From: a bacterium
GTDB taxonomy: Bacteria > Zhuqueibacterota > Zhuqueibacteria > Residuimicrobiales > Krinioviventaceae
Assembly (NCBI GenBank): GCA_963693055.1
Contig: OY843751.1
Location: 1,088,001 to 1,152,000 of the forward strand
Length of the DNA: 64,000 bases
Direction: 5' to 3'
In this document: positions 5,245-59,643 of the stretch, piece after piece
Numbering within the stretch: the first letter of the stretch is position 1
Layout: each line of letters begins with the position of its first letter
The notes under the pieces: generated by a model
Told to the model about the DNA's origin: nothing
Database searches by the model: none
What the model saw: only the letters and a program-made list of their open reading frames with translations
Made by a program: the position numbers and the translations under genes

Positions 5245-6030
5245 ATGTTTAAAATTTTTCAGGTAGATTCGTTTACAAATAAAGCATTTCAAGGGAATCC
5301 TGCGGGGGTTTGTTTGCTGGATAAACCTATGGATACCGATTGGATGCAAAACGTAGCAATGGAAATGAACTTGTCAGAAACTGCATTTCTGTTAAAGGAT
5401 ACCGACAGTTACCGGTTACGTTGGTTTACTCCTGCAATTGAGGTGGATTTGTGCGGCCATGCCACATTAGCAAGTGCGCATATATTGTTTCAGGAAGAAT
5501 TGGTTTTTCCTGACAGTGTGATTAATTTTCAAACCCGAAGTGGGTTGCTAAAAGTCGCTCAGCAAGATGGTTGGCTGGAGATGGACTTTCCTGTTGATCC
5601 GGAAAGGCCGGTTGAGGTCGCACCCATATTGCAACAGGGGATTGGAGGTCCATTACCTCAATATACCGGCAAGAGTAAACGGTTTTATCTGTTTAGATTC
5701 AAGAGTGAAAAAGATGTTTTTGATTTAAAACCCGATTTTAATATGCTTGCAGATATTCCTGACAGTGAAGTGATTGTTACGGCTGTTTCTGATAATCCTG
5801 AATTTGATTTTGTGTCGCGATTTTTTGCACCCGGTATTGGAATAAATGAAGATCCGGTTACGGGTTCTGCACATTGCACATTGGGGCCCTATTGGCAAAA
5901 AGAATTGGGTAAATCACAGTTGACTGCGTTTCAGGCATCTAAAAGAGGTGGTTTACTAAAGCTGGATGTAGGAACGAAAAGAATTAAAATTAAAGGTCAG
6001 GCAATAACTGTTATTCGGGGTACAATTTGA
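5245..6030 (+). CDS. PhzF family isomerase
   Basis: QVDSFT..FQGNPAGV, NLSETAF, EVDLCGHATLA, EDPVTGSAHC. Confidence 0.95.
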   Translation: MFKIFQVDSFTNKAFQGNPAGVCLLDKPMDTDWMQNVAMEMNLSETAFLLKDTDSYRLRWFTPAIEVDLCGHATLASAHILFQEELVFPDSVINFQTRSGLLKVAQQDGWLEMDFPVDPERPVEVAPILQQGIGGPLPQYTGKSKRFYLFRFKSEKDVFDLKPDFNMLADIPDSEVIVTAVSDNPEFDFVSRFFAPGIGINEDPVTGSAHCTLGPYWQKELGKSQLTAFQASKRGGLLKLDVGTKRIKIKGQAITVIRGTI

Positions 6031-6102
6031 TTTTTAAGCAAAGACTGTGTTTGGGGGGATTATATTATTTCTAGAGCAAGTTGTTTACACGCTTGAATGG
6101 TA

Positions 6103-9100
6103 TCAACTTTCAATCTGTGCTTTGAATGCGGAATCCAGCACATCTCTTATTGCTTTTGCTATGTTTGACATGGTTAGAGGTTTTAAAATAAATTCCCTTA
6201 TTCCAATCTGTTTTGCTTTTTCTTGTGTTACAGATTCACTATAACCTGTACACATGATGATGGGGATGTCTGGTCTGATATTGAGTAGTTTTTTGGATAA
6301 TTCTGTACCTGTTAAATGCGGCATCGTATGGTCTGTAATTACCAGATTGAACTCGTCCGGATTTTGTTGAAACAATTCTAGTGCTTTTTCACTTTCTGTA
6401 AATGTTGTTACTACATATCCCAAACTTTCAAGGATTTGTTGATATAAAAGAACAATTTCTACCTCATCATCTACAAACAGGATATGTTCATTTCCTTTGG
6501 GTATTTTATCTGAAATTTTATTGTTAAATTTTTCAGCTTTTTCTGTATGCTGAGGAAAATAGATTTCAAAAGTAGTACCTACCTGAGGTGTACTTTTTAC
6601 CTGAATATCTCCACCATGACTCAGTACAATACCGTGTACAGCAGATAACCCTAGCCCTGTACCTTCACCCACTTTTTTGGTAGTAAAAAATGGTTCAAAA
6701 ATACGTGTAATGATGGTTCCATCCATGCCTTTACCCGTATCAGAGACCCTTAAAGACACGTACGGGCGGTTGGCTTGTAAATGGCTAAATTTGGCTGCTT
6801 CATCCTTGTCGAATACTTTATTTGATAAATGTATGCCCAGTGTTCCGCCATTTTCACGCATTGCATGAAAGGCATTTGTACACAGGTTCATAATGACCTG
6901 ATGAATTTGAGTAGGATCAGCCAACAAATAACCTGTATCTTTTTCAATTTTTACATCAATTTCAATAGTGCTTGGTAATGATGATCTCAAGAGGCGTAAT
7001 GCTTCATTGACCAGATTTTTGATGCTTACAGTTTCAAGACCTTTTTGTTCCTGTCTACTAAATGTTAATATTTGTTGAACAAGATCTTTGGCCCGTTTAG
7101 ATGCCTTTAATATTTTTTCAAGGTTTGATTTTAATATATCATTGCTTGTAACAAGATCAATAGACATTTCCGCATACCCGATGATGGGTACAAGAATATT
7201 GTTAAAATCATGTGCAATGCCGCCAGCCAAAGTACCAATTGTTTCCATTTTTTGGGCATGTCTTAACTGGGCTTCCATAATTTTTCGTTTTTCTTCTGCT
7301 GTAACCAGATCTGTAATATCCAGAACCGCTCCAATGGACCCGCTGAATTCTCCTTCATCATTATACATGGGAGATGAGGACGTACGGAAATATTTTTTTT
7401 CTCCGGAAGGATGTAGATAATTGAGTTCATAGGTTGTGTTGAGACCTTTTTTCTTTTTCTTTGTTTCTTCCATAATGATTTTATGTGTGCTTGGAGGAAA
7501 TATCTCTAATAGACTTTTGGTCATCAACTCATCTACCGGGTGCCCCAGTAATTCTGCAAATGCATTGTTAAGATACAAGAAATTTTCATGTTCATCGACA
7601 ATGCCAATACCTTCCTGAACGCCATTTAATACATTATCAAGAAATATTTTTTGTTCACGTAATTCATGTTCTATACGTTTTCTTTCTTTAATTTCTGATT
7701 CAAGGTTGTTATTAAATGACATTAATTCTGCATTTCTTTCCTTGATAGAACGGGTTTGTAATATATACATCCCCATAATTATGGATACAACAAGTGTTGA
7801 AAACAGAATTCTGAACCACATGGTCATCCAGAATGGGGGGGACATGATAACCCAAATGCTGCTGCCTTTTTCGTTCCATATTCCATCATTGTTGGATGCT
7901 TTGACATGGAATGTATAGTGGCCGGGATTTAAATTGGTATAAGTGGCAAATCTTCTGTTTCCGGAATAGATCCAATCCTCATCTACTCCTGCCATTTTAT
8001 AGGCATATTGGTTTTTATCAGATGCAAAATAATTCAAAGCCGCAAATTCAAAAGAAATGATCTTGTCATGATAAGATAGTTGGATCGTGTCTGCTGAAGT
8101 TATAGTGTGATCCAGTACTTTTTTATTATTTCTAATTTCTTTATGATTGATAGATTCATTAAGAATTTGAAAATCTGTAAACACTACCGGGGGTATAAAA
8201 TCATTTTTTTTGATTTTGGAAGGCGAGAACCAAATCAAACCACCAATTGAACCAAAATACATATCCCCATTTTCATTTTTAAAATGAGCGCCGGTGTTGA
8301 ATTCGTCATTAATTAATCCTTCTGTGTGGGTATAATGTACCATATCGTAAGTAATTGGATTTAATTTGATTAATCCTTTGTTTGTGCTGATCCATAGATT
8401 GTTTAATTCATCCTGTTCAATTCCATGGATAGCTTCTGTTCCGGTTTGATTGTTTTCAAGAATAGTAATAAATGAATCATTATCCGAATTGTATTTTAAT
8501 AGCCCGCCACCCCAGGTACAAATCCATATATTGTTGGAATTGTCTTTAAACAGGGATAATATATACTCGTTTTGTAAACTGTTTTTATTATTAGGATCAT
8601 GCTTGTAATTTCGAAATGTATCATTTTTATAATTATACCTGCTGATACCTCCACCCAAAGTACCTATCCAGAGCTCTCCACTGTCGGCTTCTATTATGGC
8701 TCCTACACGATCATAAACCAAACTATTGGGATTTTGAGGATTGTGATAAAAATGAGTGAATTTTTGGGTCTTTCTGTTGAATTTGTTTAATCCCTTTTCT
8801 GTACCTATCCAAAAATTATGGTTTAAATCTTCATAGATTGAATACACGCGGTCATGTGATATGCTGTTTGGATTTGAATCCTTGTGCCGAAATGAACTAA
8901 ACGTTTCATTTTTAGGATTATATTTATTTAAACCACCGGCACCTGTTCCTATCCAAATTTGACCTTGTTTATCTTCAAACACCTTCATAACCTGATTGTC
9001 GCTAATGGAGCCAGGTTTTTCAGGGTCATATTGGTAGTGTACAGCCTGTCTGTTTATAGGTTCAATTTTATTCAAACCACCGGCGTCTGTACCGACCCAC

Positions 9101-45613: not shown

Positions 45614-47018
45614 TGTTTCCGTATAAAGTTTAAGAATAAAATATTTTTAGTTTAGTGCATGGATTATTATCTTGTAAAAGAAAGGAGCAAAAAATCCATG
45701 CCAAAACAAAAGTATACATCAGAGTTCAAAGTACGCACAGTGTTAGAAGGTCTCAAGTCACCAGACGGGATTGCCGCCTATTGTCGCCAAAAAGGGATTA
45801 GTGAGGTTCAATTTTATGGTTGGCAGAGACAGATGATCGAGAATGCGGATTCGGTATTCCACAAGATGTCCAAAGCTCAGGAACGCAAGGTTTCGCAAAT
45901 GGAAGCAGATCTGAAACGCAAGGATGAAATCATAGCGGTGGTTACTGAAGAAGCGTTAGAGCTCAAAAAAAAACTGCGCAAATAAAGCGCTACCGCCATC
46001 TGGATATTGCAACGCGAATGGATCTGTTAGGGATGCTGGAGCGCTATGCCCAATACGGATGGAGTAAAGAATCAATATGCCGGAAATGGGGCATCAGCCT
46101 CAATTCATTTTACTCATTCAATCCGGCTCCAAAAGGAAAAGCAGGTTCGTTGAAAATCCAGATAAACAAGATCACTGACGAAGAAAAGACCAAAGTCATA
46201 TCTTATGCTCTTTCCCATACGGACCTGAACCATAGAGAAATGGCGTATCGCATGATTGACGAAAACATCGTTTTTATGAGTCCATCGAGCGTGTATCGCA
46301 TCCTTAGAGAAAACAATCTGTTAGTACGTCGCCAGCCGAGACCAAAGCGAGAATATTGGGATACTCATGCCAGATTGACAGGCCCCGATAAAGTCTGGCA
46401 AACCGATCTGATGGTGGTCCGGTATAAAAATCGGGATTATTATCTATTGTCTTACATGGATGTATTTTCACGATGTATTGTATATTACAAACTTTGCAGC
46501 AGCATGACAGGTGACACAGTTAAGGAGGCAACCCTGGAAGCATTTGCGGTAACAAATAAAAAGCCTGAGGTTATCCAATCAGATAATGGCAGTTGTTTTA
46601 TTAGCAGCGAGTACAAAAGATGTTTTGTAAACAGCCCAATGGAACACCGTTTTATACATCCACATTGTCCGAACGAAAATGCCGAGATCGAACGATATCA
46701 CCGGACATTGCGAGAGTTGATAGATCCGTATGATGCCAGAGATTTTAATCATCTGTGCGAACTTGTCAAAGAACAGATTGAATATTATAATCACAAACGC
46801 TATCATTCCGGGATAGGATTTGTACCGCCATGGCTGAAATATACTGGTAAGGCAGATTCACTGATCAAGTCCCGAAAACAAAAGATACAAATAGCCAAAC
46901 AGAAACGTATGAAACAAAACTGGACAAATTATCAAAGCGCAATTCAAACAATCAAACAAAAAGCAGCATAATGTACTAAACTAAAATTTTTCCATTTTTA
47001 AACATTATGTGTGAAACA
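45614..47018 (+). mobile_element. IS3-family insertion sequence
   Basis: TG...CA ends with ~47-bp imperfect inverted repeats (tgtttcc...tttagtttagtgcat / atgtactaaactaaaa...gaaaca); orfA/orfB. No target duplication is visible. Confidence 0.85.
45698..46971 (+). CDS. IS3-family transposase OrfAB via programmed -1 frameshift
   Basis: OrfA HTH at 45698-45985; A9 run at 45965-45973; the -1 frame stays open into the rve DDE domain (WQTDL, SDNGSCF, EIERYHRTL). Confidence 0.85.
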
Positions 47019-47095
47019 ATTAGATATTATTAATTGAAGAGATAAATTCTATAAATACGATAACAATCTAAGGTGTGGTATTATGAAAAAATTAT

Positions 47096-48535
47096 GAGTT
47101 ATATTCTAATGTTGTGGATGACTTGAAAAAATAAATAAAAAAGCGTATCCTATAGTTTTTAAGTATTTTTTTTCGACCAAGAAAAAAGATAAAACCAAAA
47201 AGGACACGCTATGAAAAAAGGTAATACAACAAAGTCAGAACTGCAAGCAGAAACCACAACATTCAATAAAAGTTTGGATGAAATTATTCGAAATGGAGCG
47301 CAACAAATATTGGCAGCAGCCATAGAAAACGAAGTTCAGGAATACCTTGATCGCTATAAAAATCACAGAGATGAACAAGGTCACCGCCTGGCCGTACGCA
47401 ATGGTTCCATGCCGGAGCGCACAATATTGTCCAGTTCAGGTCCAATAACGATCCGGCAGCCGCGAGTGGATGACAGGAAATTACGGCAGGAACATGGCGT
47501 AGAAGGCTTTACAAGTGAGATACTACCCAAATACCTGAGACGGACACCCAGCCTGAATAACCTGATACCTGCCCTTTATTTGAAGGGCATTTCGACACAG
47601 GACTTCCCGGCTGCATTGTCGGCTATACTTGGAGATAAAGTCAAAGGACTTTCAGCCAACACGGTTGTGCGCTTGAAAGAAGAATGGGAGTCAGAGTACA
47701 AGCAATGGGCCAGGCGTGATCTGTCCGGCAAACACTATGTATACATCTGGGCCGATGGTGTCTATTTCAATGTTCGATTGAAAGGCGTAAATCCTTGTAT
47801 TTTAGTGATTATTGGAGCGGACGAATATGGGCGAAAAGAGCTTTTGGCGGTCAAAGAAGGCTTTCGAGAAAGCGAATTGAGCTGGAAAGAACTGCTGTTG
47901 GAGTTAAAGGACCAGGGACTTGAGATGGGACCGAAACTGGCAATCGCAGACGGTGCCCTCGGTTTTTGGAAAGCTTTGCCACAAGTTTATCCCGAGTCTC
48001 GTGAACAGCGCTGCTGGGTCCACAAGACAGCCAACATATTGGATAAGCTACCGAAAAGTGCGCAGACAAATGCCAAATCGCTTATTCATGAAATGTATAT
48101 GGCTGAGACCAAAGAAAATGCGTTAATCGCTTATCATAGATTTATCAAAATTTATGAAGACAAGTATCCCAAAGTTGTTAATTGTCTGGTAAAAGATTAT
48201 GATCAACTTTTTACTTTTTATGATTTCCCGGATTCACATTGGCAGCATATCCGGACCACGAATCCCATTGAATCTACCTTTGCTACAGTGAGACTCAGGA
48301 CGCGGAGAACAAAGGGCTGCGGTTCAAGTCAGGCGACTTTGACTATGGTTTTTAAACTGGCTAAAGAAGCGGAAAAACGGTGGCGGCGTTTGAGAGGGTA
48401 CAAGTGGATACCATTTGTGATTAAAGGAGAAAAATTTGTGAATGGTGAACCGGAAAATCAGGAATTGTTTAAGTTGGCAGCTTAACTTTTATGAAATGGA
48501 TACGCTTTTTGATCCACAACTATTGACAATAACTC
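47096..48535 (+). mobile_element. IS256-family insertion sequence
   Basis: Inverted repeats gagttat...gttgtggat / atccacaac...ataactc; 9-bp target duplication aaaaattat (47087-47095, 48536-48544). Confidence 0.92.
47211..48485 (+). CDS. IS256-family (mutator-type) transposase
   Basis: YIWADGV, IADGALGFW, QRCWVHK, RTTNPIES. Confidence 0.95.
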   Translation: MKKGNTTKSELQAETTTFNKSLDEIIRNGAQQILAAAIENEVQEYLDRYKNHRDEQGHRLAVRNGSMPERTILSSSGPITIRQPRVDDRKLRQEHGVEGFTSEILPKYLRRTPSLNNLIPALYLKGISTQDFPAALSAILGDKVKGLSANTVVRLKEEWESEYKQWARRDLSGKHYVYIWADGVYFNVRLKGVNPCILVIIGADEYGRKELLAVKEGFRESELSWKELLLELKDQGLEMGPKLAIADGALGFWKALPQVYPESREQRCWVHKTANILDKLPKSAQTNAKSLIHEMYMAETKENALIAYHRFIKIYEDKYPKVVNCLVKDYDQLFTFYDFPDSHWQHIRTTNPIESTFATVRLRTRRTKGCGSSQATLTMVFKLAKEAEKRWRRLRGYKWIPFVIKGEKFVNGEPENQELFKLAA

Positions 48536-49291
48536 AAAAATTATTAGTGTGTTGTCTTTGTTGTTTATTTTGTGATAATGTTAATGATGTTTCAACAACA
48601 CCCAGTAATATTAAAGACTCGATATTATTATTAGAAATAAAAAGAGATATGACAGTTCGATGCCGAGACGAGTCATGTGTTGAACTCTTTATTGATTTTC
48701 CAATATATAAATATGATAATGAAAAAAATCAACTAACTTTTTTTATTTATACAGATACATTATTTATAGGAGATCATTTATGTGAATTATTAGTAATCCA
48801 AGAGTTGGAATTACAAGATACTTTTAGTGGAAAAACTGGTAATATGAAACCTATTTATAGCTATCCAGATTCTCTTGGTATTATCAATTTTGATAACTTT
48901 AATGATCAGAACATTGTAATTCAAGCAATTGAACCTGACGAAACAATTTTATTAAAATATGAACAAAAAGAGTTGAAAGTGGAGAAAAGCAAGAGTATCA
49001 ATTTTAATTTTACTGGAGATCATCAGGTTTTAGGAAGTGAGGTGTCAATTGATGATAAGATAAAAATAATAAATTATGGTTCAATTAATAAAGAAAATAT
49101 TCTATTTAATTAACAAGGAGTATTTTATTATGAATAAACAAATTAAACTAAAAATATTTTTTTTATTTTGTTTTTTTTCAAATACGATTTTCGCAACAAT
49201 TCTCGAAAAATATGACACTGAGAAGTTATCAAATAAGTCTGATTTGATAGTTGTTGGTTTAGTACAAAGTATTGACTATGAGTATGATGAA

Positions 49292-50722
49292 CAGGACACC
49301 CCCGAAAAATCACAAATCATATTACTGTAAGTAATAAAAAATAATGGAGATAGAAGCAAAAAAAGCTTGTAAAAATAAAAAAAGGTTGCCTCATTATAGT
49401 TGACAGACCATAATATAGGAGGCAACCCATGGACATCACAAAACGAGTCCAAGTAAAACTTAATCAAGTGACAGCGAAATATCAAGCAGAATTCAACCGA
49501 CCGGACTATAAATTTATCAGAGACATGCATTATGGGATATTATGCTCGGGACATGTACATTTAAATAAAATCGCATCAACCCTAAAGGAAGAGACGAGCC
49601 TAAAAAAGACAACAGAACGAATGTCAAACCATCTGGGCCGACCAGGATTTGACAGAGAATTAACCATTAGTCATCTGAAAATAAATAAGAGGAGATTTTC
49701 AGATTCCAGATATTTGATAGCAGATATGAGTGATATAATAAAGCCTTATGCGGAAAAGATGGAAGGGCTTGATCGTGTTTATGATGGCAGCACCAAAGAA
49801 CTGGGAAATGGATATTGGCAACTGAATATCATTGGAGTTGATAAAACCGGAACATCCATCATGCCGCTGGTGAGTACGCTTTGGGCGACGGATCAGGAAG
49901 AAGGCAAAGGTATTTCAGAGAACAAGAAAATCCTCGAATCCGTGGACACGATTCGAGAACATATTCATGGAGAACAGATAGTTGTTTATGATCGCGGAGG
50001 TGATCGTAGCAAACTGATGAACAAATGGATTAAGCAAAAACAACACTTTATAATACGGCAAACCGGGTACCGGGATATATTTGTTCAAGGAGTAAAGAAG
50101 AATTTAAAGAAATATGCCGAAAAAATCCGTCCCAGTACTGAAATTACCGTGCAGAAAAAACGCCGGAACAGGCTGATAAAGCGATGTTTTCAATGCGGTG
50201 CCCGTAAAGTATATCTGCCAAAGCAGTATGGGGATGGCCCAATGGATACCGGATTATGGCTGATTTCAGTCACTGAACCTGGCAAAGGCAAAAGCTGGTT
50301 TTTAAGCTTTATACCGGCAGAGACTGAACGTGAGGCCATAGAGATTACCATGGAAGGCTATGGTTACCGGTGGAAAATTGAAGAGGTACATCGTCAAATA
50401 AAAAATGATTATCATCTTGAAGACATTTGCCTTAAAAGGTATGTTGCGCTAAAAAATTTTAATGCCCTGTTTTGGAATGTCATGAGTTTTATCTATTGTC
50501 ATTTGGATAATATTTGTTTACATATTTTAGATCAATCTCAAGCTCCGTTGGTGTATAGAAGGAAATTAAACGAGTTTATTGGGTTTGTTTATTATAAACT
50601 GGCAAAGGCATTAAGGATCATTTTACCCAATATAAAGCTCAGAAAATTAAAGTGTAATAATCATGCCGGTGACAAAAACCAATTGTTTTTAGCCCTCGAA
50701 TAAAAAAATCGGGGGTACCCTG
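49292..50722 (+). mobile_element. IS4-superfamily insertion sequence
   Basis: Inverted repeats caggacacccccga / tcgggggtaccctg; 10-bp target duplication gtatgatgaa (49282-49291, 50723-50732). Confidence 0.9.
49429..50703 (+). CDS. DDE transposase (IS4-like, YREK motif)
   Basis: IADMSDI, YDRGGD, YGYRWKIEEVHRQIK. Confidence 0.88.
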   Translation: MDITKRVQVKLNQVTAKYQAEFNRPDYKFIRDMHYGILCSGHVHLNKIASTLKEETSLKKTTERMSNHLGRPGFDRELTISHLKINKRRFSDSRYLIADMSDIIKPYAEKMEGLDRVYDGSTKELGNGYWQLNIIGVDKTGTSIMPLVSTLWATDQEEGKGISENKKILESVDTIREHIHGEQIVVYDRGGDRSKLMNKWIKQKQHFIIRQTGYRDIFVQGVKKNLKKYAEKIRPSTEITVQKKRRNRLIKRCFQCGARKVYLPKQYGDGPMDTGLWLISVTEPGKGKSWFLSFIPAETEREAIEITMEGYGYRWKIEEVHRQIKNDYHLEDICLKRYVALKNFNALFWNVMSFIYCHLDNICLHILDQSQAPLVYRRKLNEFIGFVYYKLAKALRIILPNIKLRKLKCNNHAGDKNQLFLALE

Positions 50723-51063
50723 GTATGATGAACAGTTGAAAATGATTTTTACCATAGTTCATATTTATCCTGAAAAGTTAATTAAGGGGTTTTTACCTGA
50801 CGATTCAATCAAATTGTTAATTCCTGGAGGACGATATAATGAAAGGAATATTATTGTTGACGGGACACCTGATTTTAAATTAGGAGAAAAAGTGATAGTA
50901 TTTTTAGAACCAGAGATAAAAAAATCATTTAGAGTAACAGGTTGGTTTCAGGGGAAATTTATTATTGAAGATGGTAAAGTTAAAGAAAAAGATATCACTT
51001 TAGATCAGTTTGTTTCAGAAATTCTAAGTTATTTAAATAAATAGTATTTAGGGAGATGGTAGG

Positions 51064-54995: not shown

Positions 54996-55011
54996 TGGTA
55001 CGCTGTTTGCA
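54996..55011 (+). promoter_or_regulatory. Sigma54 (-24/-12) promoter
   Basis: TGGTACG-CTGT-TTGCA with exact GG-N10-GC spacing, ~100 bp before the cytochrome start. Confidence 0.65.
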
Positions 55012-55112
55012 TTCGTGTTCCAAAAATCGGCAGATGCTGTTTAAAAGTTACAACATTATGAAAAACAGTAGATTACATGTCTGCTGTATTCACTAAAACT
55101 CTGGAGTTTAAA

Positions 55113-56417
55113 GTGAAACAACACATTACAGGATTTTTAATTTTACTGATGGGATTATTTGTACTGTTTTCCTGTACAAAAAAATATCCCGATCAGACCC
55201 AGATGGATCTGGCAATTGGTGGAGATGGGTGTACCAATTGTCATATGAATACCGATCTGTTAAAGGAGGTAGCTACCCCTCAGGAAGTTACCGAGGGTGA
55301 TGCGGGCGAAGGCTGAGGCGGGGAAGTGGCTCCGTTGGAGACATGGCAGATGGTTTCAATTAAAGAATCTTTTCTTAGTACCCCACATGGAAAACTGGGC
55401 TGTACAGCTTGTCACTTTGGTAACGCCAAAGCAAAGACAAAAGAAGAAGCCCACGTAAACGACTTTGTTGCAAGTCCCAGCATGCAGCCGGATGTGTATT
55501 GCGAAGGGTGTCATGCTGAAATTACCAATGATCATAATGGTAGTTTGCACAAAAATCTCGATGGATATTACAAACGTATTGAAAAGCGCCTGGGTTATGA
55601 TATTTCTGGTGATGAAATGATTGTTGGCGAATTCAACAAAGAATGCGGCAAGTGTCATGCAAGCTGCGGACAGTGTCACGTATCACGACCAGTATCCGTA
55701 AAAGGCGGCTTTCTGGACGGACATACCTTCCAGCGTGAACCGACCATGAAAGACAATTGCACAGCATGTCATGGTAGCCGAGTTGGCGCCGAATTCTTTG
55801 GTGAGAATGAAGGCATGAGAGCAGACGTTCACTGGATCCCCAATGTGAAACGCTGTGTATTCTGTCACGATGGTAACTCCATGCATAGTTCAACAGATGG
55901 TGCAACCCACCGTTATGAAGACCAGGATATGACACGTTGCGAAGACTGTCATATGGATGATAAGGAAGCTAACGAATATCATCTTACGCACTGGAAAGAT
56001 GATGGCGGCTTGTCATGCCAGGTATGTCACTCTCAGGAATACAAGAATTGTAACAGCTGCCATACCGGTGGCGCGGGAATTACCGGTAGTTCTTATATGG
56101 ATTTCAAAATTGCCAAGAACCCGATCAAAACCGACTTTCGGAATTATGATATTGTAACGGTTCGTCATATTCCAATTTCTCGTGATACCTATACAAGCTG
56201 GGGTATTGCAGACTTGCCGAATTACAATGTTGAACCCACCTGGAAGTATGCAACACCGCATAATATCCAGCGTTGGACAGCCCGTACAGATACAACCGGT
56301 ACAACAGCTTGTTATGAAAAATGTCATAATTCAGATTATTACTTGACGCTTGAAGACTTGTTTGAAGAAGAAGTTGATGCAAACAAGGATTATGTATTAA
56401 CACGAAATGAAAACTAG
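55113..56417 (+). CDS. Multiheme c-type cytochrome lipoprotein, probable selenoprotein (TGA 55314-55316 = Sec68)
   Basis: GTG start after ggag, LFSC lipobox. The two listed ORFs share a frame and read GEG-TGA-GGEVAPLE. 10 CxxCH plus one CX3CH; hairpin directly 3' of the TGA. Confidence 0.8.
55326..55344 (+). promoter_or_regulatory. Candidate bacterial SECIS hairpin
   Basis: GUG-G-CUCC-[GUU]-GGAG-A-CAU; the apical loop starts with G, 17 nt after the UGA. Confidence 0.6.
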
Positions 56418-56453
56418 AACAAATAACAAATAATACAAAATGGAGGAAACTCG

Positions 56454-57458
56454 ATGTTAAAGAGAACACTTTTATTGTTACTGGGTTTGTCACTGGTCTT
56501 GTTCATGTTTGGTTGCAGCGATGATGATGACAATCCTGCTGAAACCGAAACTGTAGATGAATTTAGTTTAATGACAGATGTTGGTGATGTATATTTTACA
56601 GATTATACCACAACCGGTGGCAATGCTGTGAATGTTTCTATCTCTGCTGTATTCCCGATTTTGGCTGATGGCGATGCTTCAAATGATCCATTGATCCTTG
56701 ATTATCGTTCAGCTGCCGACTATGCAACCGGTCACCTGACAGGTGCTATTAATGTATCATTGGGAAGTTTGATGGATAAAATAGATGATGGTACAATTAC
56801 TAAAGACAAAACCGTTTTGAACGTATGTTATACCGGTCAAACTGCAAGTTTTGCTACCAGCATCCTGAATCTGTTGGGTTATGAAGCTGAGAATCTGCTT
56901 TTTGGTATGTGTGGTGTTACTACAGATGCTTCTGTAAATGGTACTGACAAATGGAGCTCTCAGGTTGCATCTGATGAATTTGCAGCACAATTGGTTTCTA
57001 CTGTCTCTACTACTACAACTGAATATGATTTTCCATCAATTTCTACCAGCCAGACTACTGCTGAAGAAGTTATAATCGAACAATTCAAATCCGTAGGTGC
57101 AAGTGGTTGGACCATTTCTGCCGGAGATGTTTTTGCTAATCCTTCCGGTTATTTTGTAATCAACTACTGGCCACAGGCTGAATACGAAGCACCGGGTCAT
57201 ATTCCGGGTGCTTATTGTTTTCCACCCAAGTCTTCTTTGCAGAAAGCAGAGATGTTGAAACTGCTGCCTACTGACAAAACAATCGTTGTTTATTGCTATA
57301 CGGGTCAAACATCAGCTCAGGTAACTGCTTACCTGCGTATGCTGGGTTATGACGCAAAAAGCTTATTGTATGGTGTAAATGGTTTTGCTTATAATGCATT
57401 AGCCGGCCATAAATATTCTGCACCAGCTGACGATTATTCATCTATTATTGTTAAATAA
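56454..57458 (+). CDS. Tandem rhodanese-domain lipoprotein (sulfur/selenium transferase-like)
   Basis: ggagg RBS, FGC lipobox, GHLTGAIN and GHIPGAY, two CYTGQT active-site loops. Confidence 0.9.
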   Translation: MLKRTLLLLLGLSLVLFMFGCSDDDDNPAETETVDEFSLMTDVGDVYFTDYTTTGGNAVNVSISAVFPILADGDASNDPLILDYRSAADYATGHLTGAINVSLGSLMDKIDDGTITKDKTVLNVCYTGQTASFATSILNLLGYEAENLLFGMCGVTTDASVNGTDKWSSQVASDEFAAQLVSTVSTTTTEYDFPSISTSQTTAEEVIIEQFKSVGASGWTISAGDVFANPSGYFVINYWPQAEYEAPGHIPGAYCFPPKSSLQKAEMLKLLPTDKTIVVYCYTGQTSAQVTAYLRMLGYDAKSLLYGVNGFAYNALAGHKYSAPADDYSSIIVK

Positions 57459-57468
57459 ATTCTGCAAA

Positions 57469-57510
57469 AACCCGAGACTGTGAAATTTTTTACAGTCTCG
57501 GGTTGCTTTT
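57469..57510 (+). terminator. Intra-operon stem-loop/terminator
   Basis: cccgagactgtgaaa/tttacagtctcggg followed by ttgcttttt. Confidence 0.7.
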
Positions 57511-57579
57511 TAGACTTTTATATATTATCATTCAGTATAATCAAATATGCGCGGTTCCAAATATATCGCGGGAAAAATT

Positions 57580-58758
57580 ATGAAAAAAATCATTCCAATT
57601 CTGGTGCTGTTATCAAGTATGTGCCTGCAAGCACAGGGCCTGGTATTTCACGGAAAGGTCAGGAACTCTGTTTACAGTTACGAGAGTGATGAGCAGCATA
57701 ATCGGGCTTATCAGTATTTGCGTTTCAGCCTTGCAACCGCTGATAAAAAGTTCCGTATTAATTCATCTGTACGTGCGCTTACAGATTTTAACGAAACCAT
57801 AGACAGCGATCTTCGTTTCAAAGCTTATGCTTTGAACCTTGAAGCCAACGATCTTTTAGGCCGTGTGGATTTAAAGCTGGGACGCCAGTTCTTACATCCT
57901 GGAACTGTTTTAGGCGCTCTCGATGGTCTATCTGGCTCTGTCAAGATCAATAAAATGTTTTCTGTTGAAGGTTATGCCGGAACAGAATCACATTTTGATC
58001 GTATTTTCAAAGTCTATGAGCTGGATGACAGTTTTGTTGCCGGTGGTTTATTTAATGTTAAAAATCTGTACTCAACCAACCTGCAGCTTTTGTACCTGCA
58101 CAAATCCAATGTTGATACAACCTTGTTTCAGCTCACCGGTTTAAATGTTACCAATTATACTTTTGATAAAACGCATTTTAATGTTCAGGCGCATTATGAT
58201 ATGCAAAATGAACGCATGCACCGCTTGATGGCTTCTGTTCGCCAGGAGCTGTTGGGAAATATGGCGGTTAACCTCAGGTATAAAAGCCAGTATCCCCAGA
58301 TTTATACAAACTCGTTTTTTTCTATTTTTTCACCCAAGGCATACAAACAATATCATGCAGGGCTGAGTTACGAATTTTATAAAGATTATTATATCAGTAC
58401 GCAATACCAACTGGTCCAGTTTGATGACGGAAACGCAAACAAGGTATTTTTTACTATCAACGGTATGAATGCCAGTGCCGGTGTTTTATATGAAAGCGGA
58501 TACGCGGGTGATCAGTTGTCACTAATGTTTGATTATGCATATGAAGTGATTGAAAATCTCTATGCGTCAATCAATCTTGATTATTCGAAATACAGAACAG
58601 AAGAATTGTATGAATATGATAATCAATTGGCAAACGCGTTGCGCTTGAATTATCGCCTCAACAAGAACTGGATCATTGATTTGGAATATCAATGGTTGAA
58701 TAACAAATTCACAGAAAATGATTCCCGTTTTCTGAATCATATTACGTATAGATGGTAA
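57580..58758 (+). CDS. Putative outer-membrane beta-barrel (porin of a porin-cytochrome module)
   Basis: Signal peptide, alternating aromatic beta-strands, LKLGRQF motif, C-terminal ITYRW; lies between cytochrome genes. Confidence 0.7.
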   Translation: MKKIIPILVLLSSMCLQAQGLVFHGKVRNSVYSYESDEQHNRAYQYLRFSLATADKKFRINSSVRALTDFNETIDSDLRFKAYALNLEANDLLGRVDLKLGRQFLHPGTVLGALDGLSGSVKINKMFSVEGYAGTESHFDRIFKVYELDDSFVAGGLFNVKNLYSTNLQLLYLHKSNVDTTLFQLTGLNVTNYTFDKTHFNVQAHYDMQNERMHRLMASVRQELLGNMAVNLRYKSQYPQIYTNSFFSIFSPKAYKQYHAGLSYEFYKDYYISTQYQLVQFDDGNANKVFFTINGMNASAGVLYESGYAGDQLSLMFDYAYEVIENLYASINLDYSKYRTEELYEYDNQLANALRLNYRLNKNWIIDLEYQWLNNKFTENDSRFLNHITYRW

Positions 58759-58773
58759 TTGAAGGATTTTCCA

Positions 58774-59643
58774 ATGAAATATATAATTGGTATTTTAGCA
58801 TTATTTCTGTTGGTTTCTGTTTCTTTGGGACAGAATGTAGAACTGATCTTTTCACATCAGTTCCATGCTGTGGATGTTGAGGCCGAGTGTTCTGCTTGTC
58901 ACGTTGCGGCAGATACCAGTACAATGGCAATGCATAATCTGCTACCGGATATGGAAACCTGTTATACCTGTCATGATGAAGATACGGATTGTACTGTATG
59001 TCACAAAGATCCTGACAATGCGGTTCCGTATCCCCGTATTGAGCAATATATTGCCAAGTTCCCGCATGCGACACATGTGGAAAATGAGGTTGCATGCGAA
59101 ACATGCCATGCCGGTGTAGCCTCAAACAGTAATATTTTTGACAGTCATTTGCCTGATATGGGTGCGTGTATGAATTGTCATACCGAATTAGAGCAGCCTG
59201 ACTATTGTATTACCTGCCACGCAGAAACTGAAGATCTGATGCCAGCTGACCATAAATTGGATTGGACAAAATCCCACGGTTTTGCCGCACAAGCTGATCA
59301 GGAATGTTCAATTTGCCATACTGAGAACCAGTGTCTGGATTGTCATCAGGGAGATGATCTTGATCACAAAGTGCATCCGTTGAATTTTGTCAACAACCAT
59401 GCAATTTTTGCCAAAGGCAACAAGGACAACTGTTTGACCTGTCATGAAGAACTGCTCTCATGTGTCGACTGCCATCAACAGGAAATGGTAATGCCTGCAA
59501 ATCACTCCAGTGCAGGATGGTCCAACTTTACTACCGGTGGCCGCCACGCGCGTGAAGCCCTTCAGGATCTCGATTCCTGTGTTAGCTGTCATAATGACGC
59601 TGTGGGTAATCCGGTTTGTTTGACCTGTCACCAACAGAATTAA
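58774..59643 (+). CDS. Dodecaheme c-type cytochrome (c3/c7-like modules)
   Basis: Signal peptide, 12 CxxCH counted, FSHQFH and FPHATH distal-ligand motifs. Confidence 0.92.
   Translation: MKYIIGILALFLLVSVSLGQNVELIFSHQFHAVDVEAECSACHVAADTSTMAMHNLLPDMETCYTCHDEDTDCTVCHKDPDNAVPYPRIEQYIAKFPHATHVENEVACETCHAGVASNSNIFDSHLPDMGACMNCHTELEQPDYCITCHAETEDLMPADHKLDWTKSHGFAAQADQECSICHTENQCLDCHQGDDLDHKVHPLNFVNNHAIFAKGNKDNCLTCHEELLSCVDCHQQEMVMPANHSSAGWSNFTTGGRHAREALQDLDSCVSCHNDAVGNPVCLTCHQQN

Follow-up and report, generated by a model that had tools for sequence, protein, structure and literature searches.

A predicted selenocysteine-containing 11-heme cytochrome paired with a tandem rhodanese, probably an extracytoplasmic reductase of sulfur compounds that has not been catalogued

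The window analyzed here, a 64,000-nucleotide stretch of bacterial DNA, contains two adjacent reading frames that raise a simple question: are they separate genes, or one cytochrome gene interrupted by a codon that is read as selenocysteine (Sec), and what would such a protein do? A plain ORF listing splits the cytochrome gene into frames at 55077-55316 and 55326-56417. Translation of positions 55113-56417 of the forward strand yielded 434 codons in one frame with a single internal TGA at 55314-55316, corresponding to residue 68. The preliminary description had proposed one selenoprotein gene hidden as two ORFs, and a single frame with one TGA was indeed found; the two apparent genes are almost certainly one gene in which the TGA is read as selenocysteine. 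The gene has the following features:

55113..56417, forward strand: gene for an 11-heme c-type cytochrome lipoprotein of 434 aa with predicted Sec68 (frame, motifs, Sec machinery)
55113..55175, forward strand: lipoprotein signal peptide with lipobox LFS-C21 (sequence, hydropathy)
55230..55244, forward strand: heme motif 1 (CTNCH), the sole one before the TGA, invariant in 60/60 covering rows
55314..55316, forward strand: in-frame TGA, predicted selenocysteine 68 in G-E-G-U-G-G, in a glycine-rich loop (homologue codons; loop pLDDT of 66)
55326..55344, forward strand: bacterial SECIS-type hairpin with apical loop GTT at 55334-55336 (conservation, published geometry)
56310..56327, forward strand: eleventh heme motif, CX3CH (CYEKCH) at C400, with C400, C404, and H405 in 131/131 rows

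The reading frame and its in-frame TGA

The start codon, GTG at 55113, is preceded by GGAG at a spacing of 6 nt. The 5′ part of the frame encodes a hydrophobic leader ending in LFSC, and the lipobox Cys was present in 27 of the 27 aligned rows reaching that position. A lipoprotein leader upstream and the lack of a signal peptide downstream had both been noted earlier, and hydropathy agreed: the leader reached an 11-residue peak of 3.16, while the first 60 residues of the 3′ ORF peaked at 0.64 and twin Arg was absent. The motif counts also matched the earlier ones, with one CxxCH (C40) before the TGA and nine CxxCH (C97, C130, C178, C185, C216, C248, C276, C302, and C313) plus the CX3CH after it. 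In many relatives the eleventh motif is CxxCH, and some carry 11 plain CxxCH. Cytochrome c assembly proteins are present in the genome, and the product is predicted to be an exported, membrane-anchored chain carrying 11 hemes.

Outside the heme motifs and the lipobox, the cytochrome has a single Cys-like residue, residue 68, and there is no second free Cys. Nine non-motif His residues were found in 128 to 131 of the roughly 131 rows, and His352 in 119, with Arg replacing it in 12; with 9 to 10 conserved spare His residues for 11 hemes, one or two hemes would therefore be left without a His sixth ligand. Arg159, Arg192, Arg223, and Arg351 are also conserved. An AlphaFold model of the mature chain, in which Sec was entered as Cys and hemes were absent, reached a pLDDT of 90.7 and a pTM of 0.87; the Sec loop, at 66, was its least certain internal part.

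Is the TGA genuine, and can the host decode it? Over 55000-56600, contigs from runs X1 and X2, both of one sample that is possibly the source, showed 0 differences, and homologues with as little as 40% identity still have the TGA; together, these observations exclude a base-call error, against which the preliminary description had cautioned, for practical purposes. The host genome is one contig and 100% complete, and TGA terminates 605 of its 2970 long ORFs, which makes it a normal stop elsewhere in the genome. The Sec machinery named earlier as a check proved to be complete: tRNA-Sec is encoded, and a profile search of the genome returned SelA (578.6 bits), SelB (363.3), and SelD (377.4), all over curated cut-offs. 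The SelD frame contains an in-frame TGA of its own (Sec-type SelD). A further frame, YPGDFTFV-U at G000:C1:6394718 (reverse strand), passed the SECIS-type hairpin test; by its motif we take it to be peroxiredoxin-like, and it is likely a second selenoprotein besides SelD. Of the 33 genomes in which the TGA was inspected, 29 contained SelA, and the four that did not show it (G119, G128, G133, and G140) are 56 to 90% complete. SelA is common in the phylum as a whole (130/167 genomes, a tally that takes in two unpublished genomes without the cytochrome family).

Homologues and the SECIS-type hairpin

Alternation of TGA with Cys at the site, another check proposed earlier, was evident among 119 homologous loci, a set that includes duplicates and the window: the codon was TGA in 99, Cys in 16, and Ile in 3, with 1 locus truncated. 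The 39 genome loci comprised 29 TGA and 10 Cys, and the 80 metagenome loci 70 TGA, 6 Cys, 3 Ile, and the truncated one. Trp, Arg, or Gly at this position had been named as signs against selenocysteine; Trp was never seen, while Arg and Gly did occur, in degenerate paralogs only. Upon dereplication of the 108 loci that could be parsed, clustering at 90% left 83 Sec, 8 Cys, and 2 Ile clusters.

The family occurs in 43 of the 167 genomes of its phylum, in 588 of 600 pattern-matched metagenome stretches (about 1200 are estimated), and in 12 of 301 sampled Bacteroidota genomes, all 12 of them stop-free. SelA exceeded its cut-off in 0 of 5 Cys-form Bacteroidota genomes, whose completeness is not known. 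On quick trees, with SH-aLRT support only, the Cys forms separated into a Bacteroidota clade and a pair of close relatives lying within the Sec forms. The latter two (L017 and L018) represent a recent Sec-to-Cys conversion with the SECIS hairpin retained and the rhodanese gene broken. Databases record the family mostly as its 3′ piece, named hypothetical: 116 of the 120 matches listed cover 72 to 84% of the query, and the others are three full-length sequences and the window's own piece. The named top homologues belong to candidate division KSB1, which makes the host a probable member of this phylum, and the sources of the family include KSB1, Calditrichaceae, Zixiibacteriota, Gemmatimonadota, and Deltaproteobacteria. 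At one metagenome locus (L084), the cytochrome at 6013-7203 reads CDG-U-GG at the site, a CxxU motif. Among three longer forms (P0122, P0124, and P0126), the fusion partners are further hemes plus a cytochrome b, a set of four rhodanese domains (possibly a read-through artefact), and a second multiheme unit.

Downstream of the TGA lies the hairpin GTGG-CTCC-GTT-GGAG-ACAT. Both the residue 68 setting (GEG-U-GGEV, within GDAGEG-U-GGEVAP) and the G-led apical loop 17 nt past the TGA were as previously described, and the hairpin is conserved among homologues. Published bacterial SECIS geometry has a loop of 3 to 9 nt with a G among its initial two nucleotides, 16 to 37 nt from the UGA, on a stem of at least 4 bp (PMC13188914, excerpts), which the focal hairpin, with its GTT loop at +17, matches. 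Folded alone, it reached −4.9 kcal/mol, weaker than the published threshold of −7.5 kcal/mol; the UGA plus 64 nt reached −15.2 with the hairpin formed, but this was no better than shuffles (z −0.54). Since the hairpin alone is weak, its weight comes from conservation. Across 27 TGA sequences, the named stem was 95.8% paired versus 32 to 62% when slid, a control biased toward this stem because it was picked from the tested sequences, and two of its pairs showed two-sided changes. RNAalifold instead favored a different consensus hairpin (columns 2-7/14-19), which had no such changes and was set aside. A fixed hairpin test was passed by 83 of 89 distinct TGA sequences (excluding L095 and L098, both true TGA), against a background of 38 among 988 further genomic TGAs with open flanks. 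Among Cys sequences it was passed by 2 of 15, namely the two recently converted relatives (Bacteroidota type, 0/13), and among Ile sequences by 1 of 2. The loop G was kept in 89/89 TGA sequences even though, as the third base of a codon that in most cases specifies Pro or Gln, it is silent.

These data allow the reading of the codon to be weighed. If the TGA were a true stop (separating two subunits or marking a pseudogene), a sequencing error, or a Trp codon, the preponderance of 3′ pieces in the databases and a GTG 9 nt after the TGA would be in keeping with it. It would leave the 3′ piece without an export signal, and it is at odds with the continuous Cys homologues, the absence of Trp from the site in all loci inspected, the normal use of TGA as a stop elsewhere in the genome, the silent-site constraint on the hairpin, and the identical contigs; we give it only the slimmest chance. 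Sec readthrough at codon 68, predicted from these lines of sequence evidence, is by our estimate close to certain.

A tandem rhodanese partner and neighboring genes

The genes that follow the cytochrome gene supply a clue to its role:

56454..57458, forward strand: tandem-rhodanese lipoprotein with two CYTGQT loops (C125 and C281) (PF00581, two stretches, E 1e-24)
57469..57504, forward strand: terminator-like stem of 16 bp following the rhodanese gene (by consensus match only)
57547..58758, forward strand: putative beta-barrel of the outer membrane (18 amphipathic segments, a signal peptide, and Trp at the C terminus)
58759..59643, forward strand: exported 12-heme cytochrome (12 CxxCH; Pfam c7/c3/MtrC-like matches)

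The rhodanese partner, which the preliminary description had missed, is the main functional clue. Both loop Cys residues were invariant in 64 rows. A full tandem rhodanese was adjacent or fused at 63 of 68 Sec loci (a single domain at 4 and none at 1, L084), and present at 11 of 12 Cys loci and at 0 of 6 loci without Sec and Cys (absent from 5, a remnant at 1); the 68 include duplicates, and 41 Sec, 4 Cys, and 2 residue-lost loci with short flanks were left out of the count. The rhodanese gene is deleted or frameshifted at the two own-phylum Cys loci, of which L018 is still counted among the 11. In L072, L095, L098, and L101, the tandem rhodanese is fused to the cytochrome. We predict that the tandem rhodanese is the sulfur-carrier partner of the cytochrome.

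Loss of the residue required 5 changes on the tree, at least 3 of which are forced by strong branches. Eight aligned paralogs without Sec or Cys kept all eleven heme motifs as well as His residues 92, 114, 146, 204, 240, 258, 290, 352, and 383, with His293 changed to Met in three of them. Their strong decay was confined to the loop at 50-78, and the site column held Ile, Leu, Arg, Gly, or a gap. Since these paralogs keep hemes and His residues and only the loop decays strongly, Sec68 would be catalytic rather than structural. Decay of the entire loop together with the absence of the rhodanese fits the loss of a catalytic residue, and, the hemes being kept, this joint loss indicates that the scaffold can do without the Sec loop, which is instead linked to the rhodanese. 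Five genome paralogs without the residue adjoin cytochrome and barrel-like genes, and residue-lost paralogs have possibly been converted to pure electron conduits.

Several related arrangements were also seen. The residue-lost paralogs L123 to L127, L050, and L056, with 11 heme motifs, lie among barrel-like and multiheme genes; L126 and L127 carry a deletion of the loop, and their cytochrome gene comes after succinate dehydrogenase-like genes. A second Sec subfamily (L128, L129, L102, and L119) has a single-domain rhodanese and forms the second copy in two genomes of family f17.

The barrel and 12-heme genes are conserved downstream in own-phylum loci. The product of 57547..58758, for which Pfam gave no match, is a putative outer-membrane barrel on sequence features, and the 12-heme cytochrome is its possible conduit partner. 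A gene for cytochrome bd oxidase follows 2 kb further along, and was found near the locus only in its own genus (L004), most loci being too short to tell. In relatives (L131 and L133 to L137), sigma-54-type regulator genes and a small TPR-like gene are often located upstream of the cluster. A promoter scan remained at chance level (17 versus 15.1). Elsewhere in the window, 45659-50703 contains three transposase-like genes, one of which (49429-50703) apparently interrupts a secreted-protein gene (49076-49330 and 50736-51044).

Three or more heme motifs occur in 20 frames of the genome, two of which are pentahemes weakly matching NF040886. One cytochrome with 49 CxxCH motifs is encoded at G000:C1:2005667-2009431 (reverse strand), and a true octaheme tetrathionate reductase (OTR) lies at 4804808 (570 bits). 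No DsrA match was obtained in the genome. Its one NrfD-family gene is near a pentaheme that resembles an alternative complex III subunit, so a polysulfide reductase membrane anchor is not evident in the genome.

Proposed mechanism and comparison with known systems

The cytochrome is probably a reductase of sulfur compounds, so far uncatalogued, that acts outside the cytoplasm. In the mechanism we propose, SelB would recognize the hairpin and insert Sec68, and the cytochrome chain would be exported and receive 11 hemes. The rhodanese Cys residues would take up sulfane sulfur, and Sec68, on its mobile Gly-rich loop, would attack the rhodanese-bound sulfur and carry it to the heme lacking a His sixth ligand, acting as the ligand of that heme or beside it. 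The heme chain would then supply electrons, and sulfide would be released. In its own phylum, the downstream barrel and 12-heme cytochrome would connect the enzyme to the outer membrane. Taken as a whole, this scheme, in which Sec cytochrome and tandem rhodanese form a periplasm-facing sulfane-sulfur reductase (of polysulfide or protein-bound persulfide), seems to us slightly better than an even bet. Precedent favors it, as MccSep is a Sec/heme polysulfide reductase encoded in a cluster with a rhodanese, a porin, and a 12-heme cytochrome.

Neither the substrate nor the direction of a reaction is fixed by gene linkage, and other readings have to be weighed. The enzyme might run oxidatively, with Sec68 acting like the heme-ligating Cys of TsdA or SoxA to oxidize sulfide or thiosulfate, load the rhodanese, and pass electrons out through the hemes. 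The His/Cys-ligated hemes of TsdA and SoxAX do oxidize thiosulfate (PMC13510729, excerpts), one heme here apparently lacks a His ligand, the barrel and 12-heme genes could export electrons, and a bd oxidase gene is close by; the detection of that oxidase gene near the locus only in its own genus, the absence of a DsrA match, and the fact that the sole characterized Sec multiheme enzyme is a reductase make this direction unlikely. A passive role for Sec68, solely as an axial ligand that lowers the potential of one heme in an electron-transfer or sulfide-sensing cytochrome, with the rhodanese merely co-regulated, we judge to be quite unlikely: it accommodates the His count, which leaves one or two hemes without His, and the persistence of residue-lost paralogs beside barrel and cytochrome genes as apparent conduits, yet it does not explain why residue and rhodanese were lost together at least three times and are fused in some loci.

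Selenite, tellurite, or a different chalcogen oxyanion might instead be what the module reduces or detoxifies, in which case the rhodanese would carry selenium; this appears more doubtful still. MccSep also reduces selenite, but it prefers polysulfide sevenfold (both PMC13510729, excerpts). The Geobacter ext cluster, with rhodanese and porin, has been implicated in selenite and tellurite reduction (PMC5877670, excerpts), and the four conserved Arg residues here could bind anions. Against this, Bacteroidota genomes in which no SelA was found still carry Cys forms together with an intact rhodanese, which points to sulfur chemistry.

Within the sulfane-sulfur reductase scheme, we tentatively suggest a more specific site, which we consider possible though doubtful: Sec might be an axial ligand of a c-type heme that swings off the iron to take sulfur from the rhodanese, giving molybdenum-free sulfur respiration in several uncultured phyla and a second, unrelated Sec multiheme family. 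Literature searches returned no report of such a selenolate-heme site in a natural enzyme. With the His ligand missing, direct selenium-iron ligation becomes a possibility open to testing, and the natural Cys forms make the chemistry testable without Sec machinery. If sulfane sulfur is reduced, a hidden marker of sulfur respiration would be gained for many uncultured anaerobes, in a family that is widespread yet usually recorded as a truncated hypothetical protein.

The cytochrome exceeded no NCBIfam cut-off, so that no family was assigned, and a single-sequence PDB search gave nothing (best E 0.1). Neither it nor 35 members matched the GSU2204 family (NF041027) or hypothetical protein DG (NF049953, GUxG motif); NF049953 was also unmatched in the genome, in a search without a positive control. 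A catalogue of 119 families contains, in its accessible excerpts, only ExtKL, GSU2204, and a Sec-bearing OTR member as cytochromes (PMC13188914), with which excerpts of PMC9312934 agree. The suggestion that the family might be uncatalogued thus held up, as it is not ExtKL and fits no entry found in those excerpts. The terms "cytochrome" and "heme" were not found in the main texts of BSepDB, deep-Sep, and SelCysML, and literature searches, with subscription journals outside their scope, yielded no description of the family.

Among solved structures, OTR (PDB 1sp3, TIGR04315), which reduces sulfur compounds, was the best match to the family profile (E 1.9e-7); heme motifs 6 to 9 align with OTR IV to VII, and motifs 3 to 5 more loosely with I to III. 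The OTR of the genome ranked first among its other multiheme proteins in hmmsearch, but unrelated ones scored as well in hhalign, so the resemblance is partly generic, and we did not adopt an OTR-based catalytic heme (motif 4). A hit to TIGR04315 was obtained for only 6 of the 35 members, the best at E 3.6e-4. Membership in OTR (cut-off of 375 bits, eight motifs) was rejected, given scores below the cut-off, 11 instead of 8 motifs, and the true OTR elsewhere in the genome. TsdA and SoxAX use Cys and far fewer hemes. They share with the present protein a chalcogen side chain at a heme as the catalytic site, here a predicted one (PMC13510729, excerpts), and gave no sequence match in Pfam, NCBIfam, or PDB searches. 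Polysulfide reductase (Psr) operons that include exported multi-rhodanese sulfur transferases likewise encode a lipoprotein rhodanese beside a periplasmic sulfur-reducing enzyme (PMC12142623, excerpts). Psr is a molybdoenzyme, whereas the predicted catalyst here is heme plus Sec.

To our knowledge, the sole characterized multiheme selenoenzyme is MccSep (2026). This polysulfide reductase, MccSep/ExtKL (GSU2937-2936) of Geobacter sulfurreducens, is a soluble periplasmic tetramer with five hemes, a heme-ligating Cys239, and Sec325 in a C-terminal Ig-like domain (DGUP) (PMC13510729, excerpts). Products of its cluster include a 12-heme cytochrome and proteins resembling a rhodanese and a porin (PMC5877670, excerpts). 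Both systems comprise an exported multiheme c-type cytochrome with one Sec that is annotated as two ORFs, a SECIS-like hairpin after the UGA, and Cys-type homologues (PMC13510729, excerpts), and their neighborhoods converge on rhodanese, porin or barrel, and 12-heme genes. ExtKL membership was nevertheless rejected: NF040886 (MccSep/ExtKL; cut-off of 250 bits) was unmatched in 35 members at E 0.1 and at the locus, and heme number and Sec position differ, the present protein being a lipoprotein with 11 hemes and Sec68 between hemes 1 and 2 (GEGUGG). Because MccSep uses a separate heme-ligating Cys and the present cytochrome has no second free Cys, the chemistry of the two cannot be the same. 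We judge the cytochrome to represent a real, apparently uncatalogued selenoprotein family that is separate from MccSep and has a different architecture.
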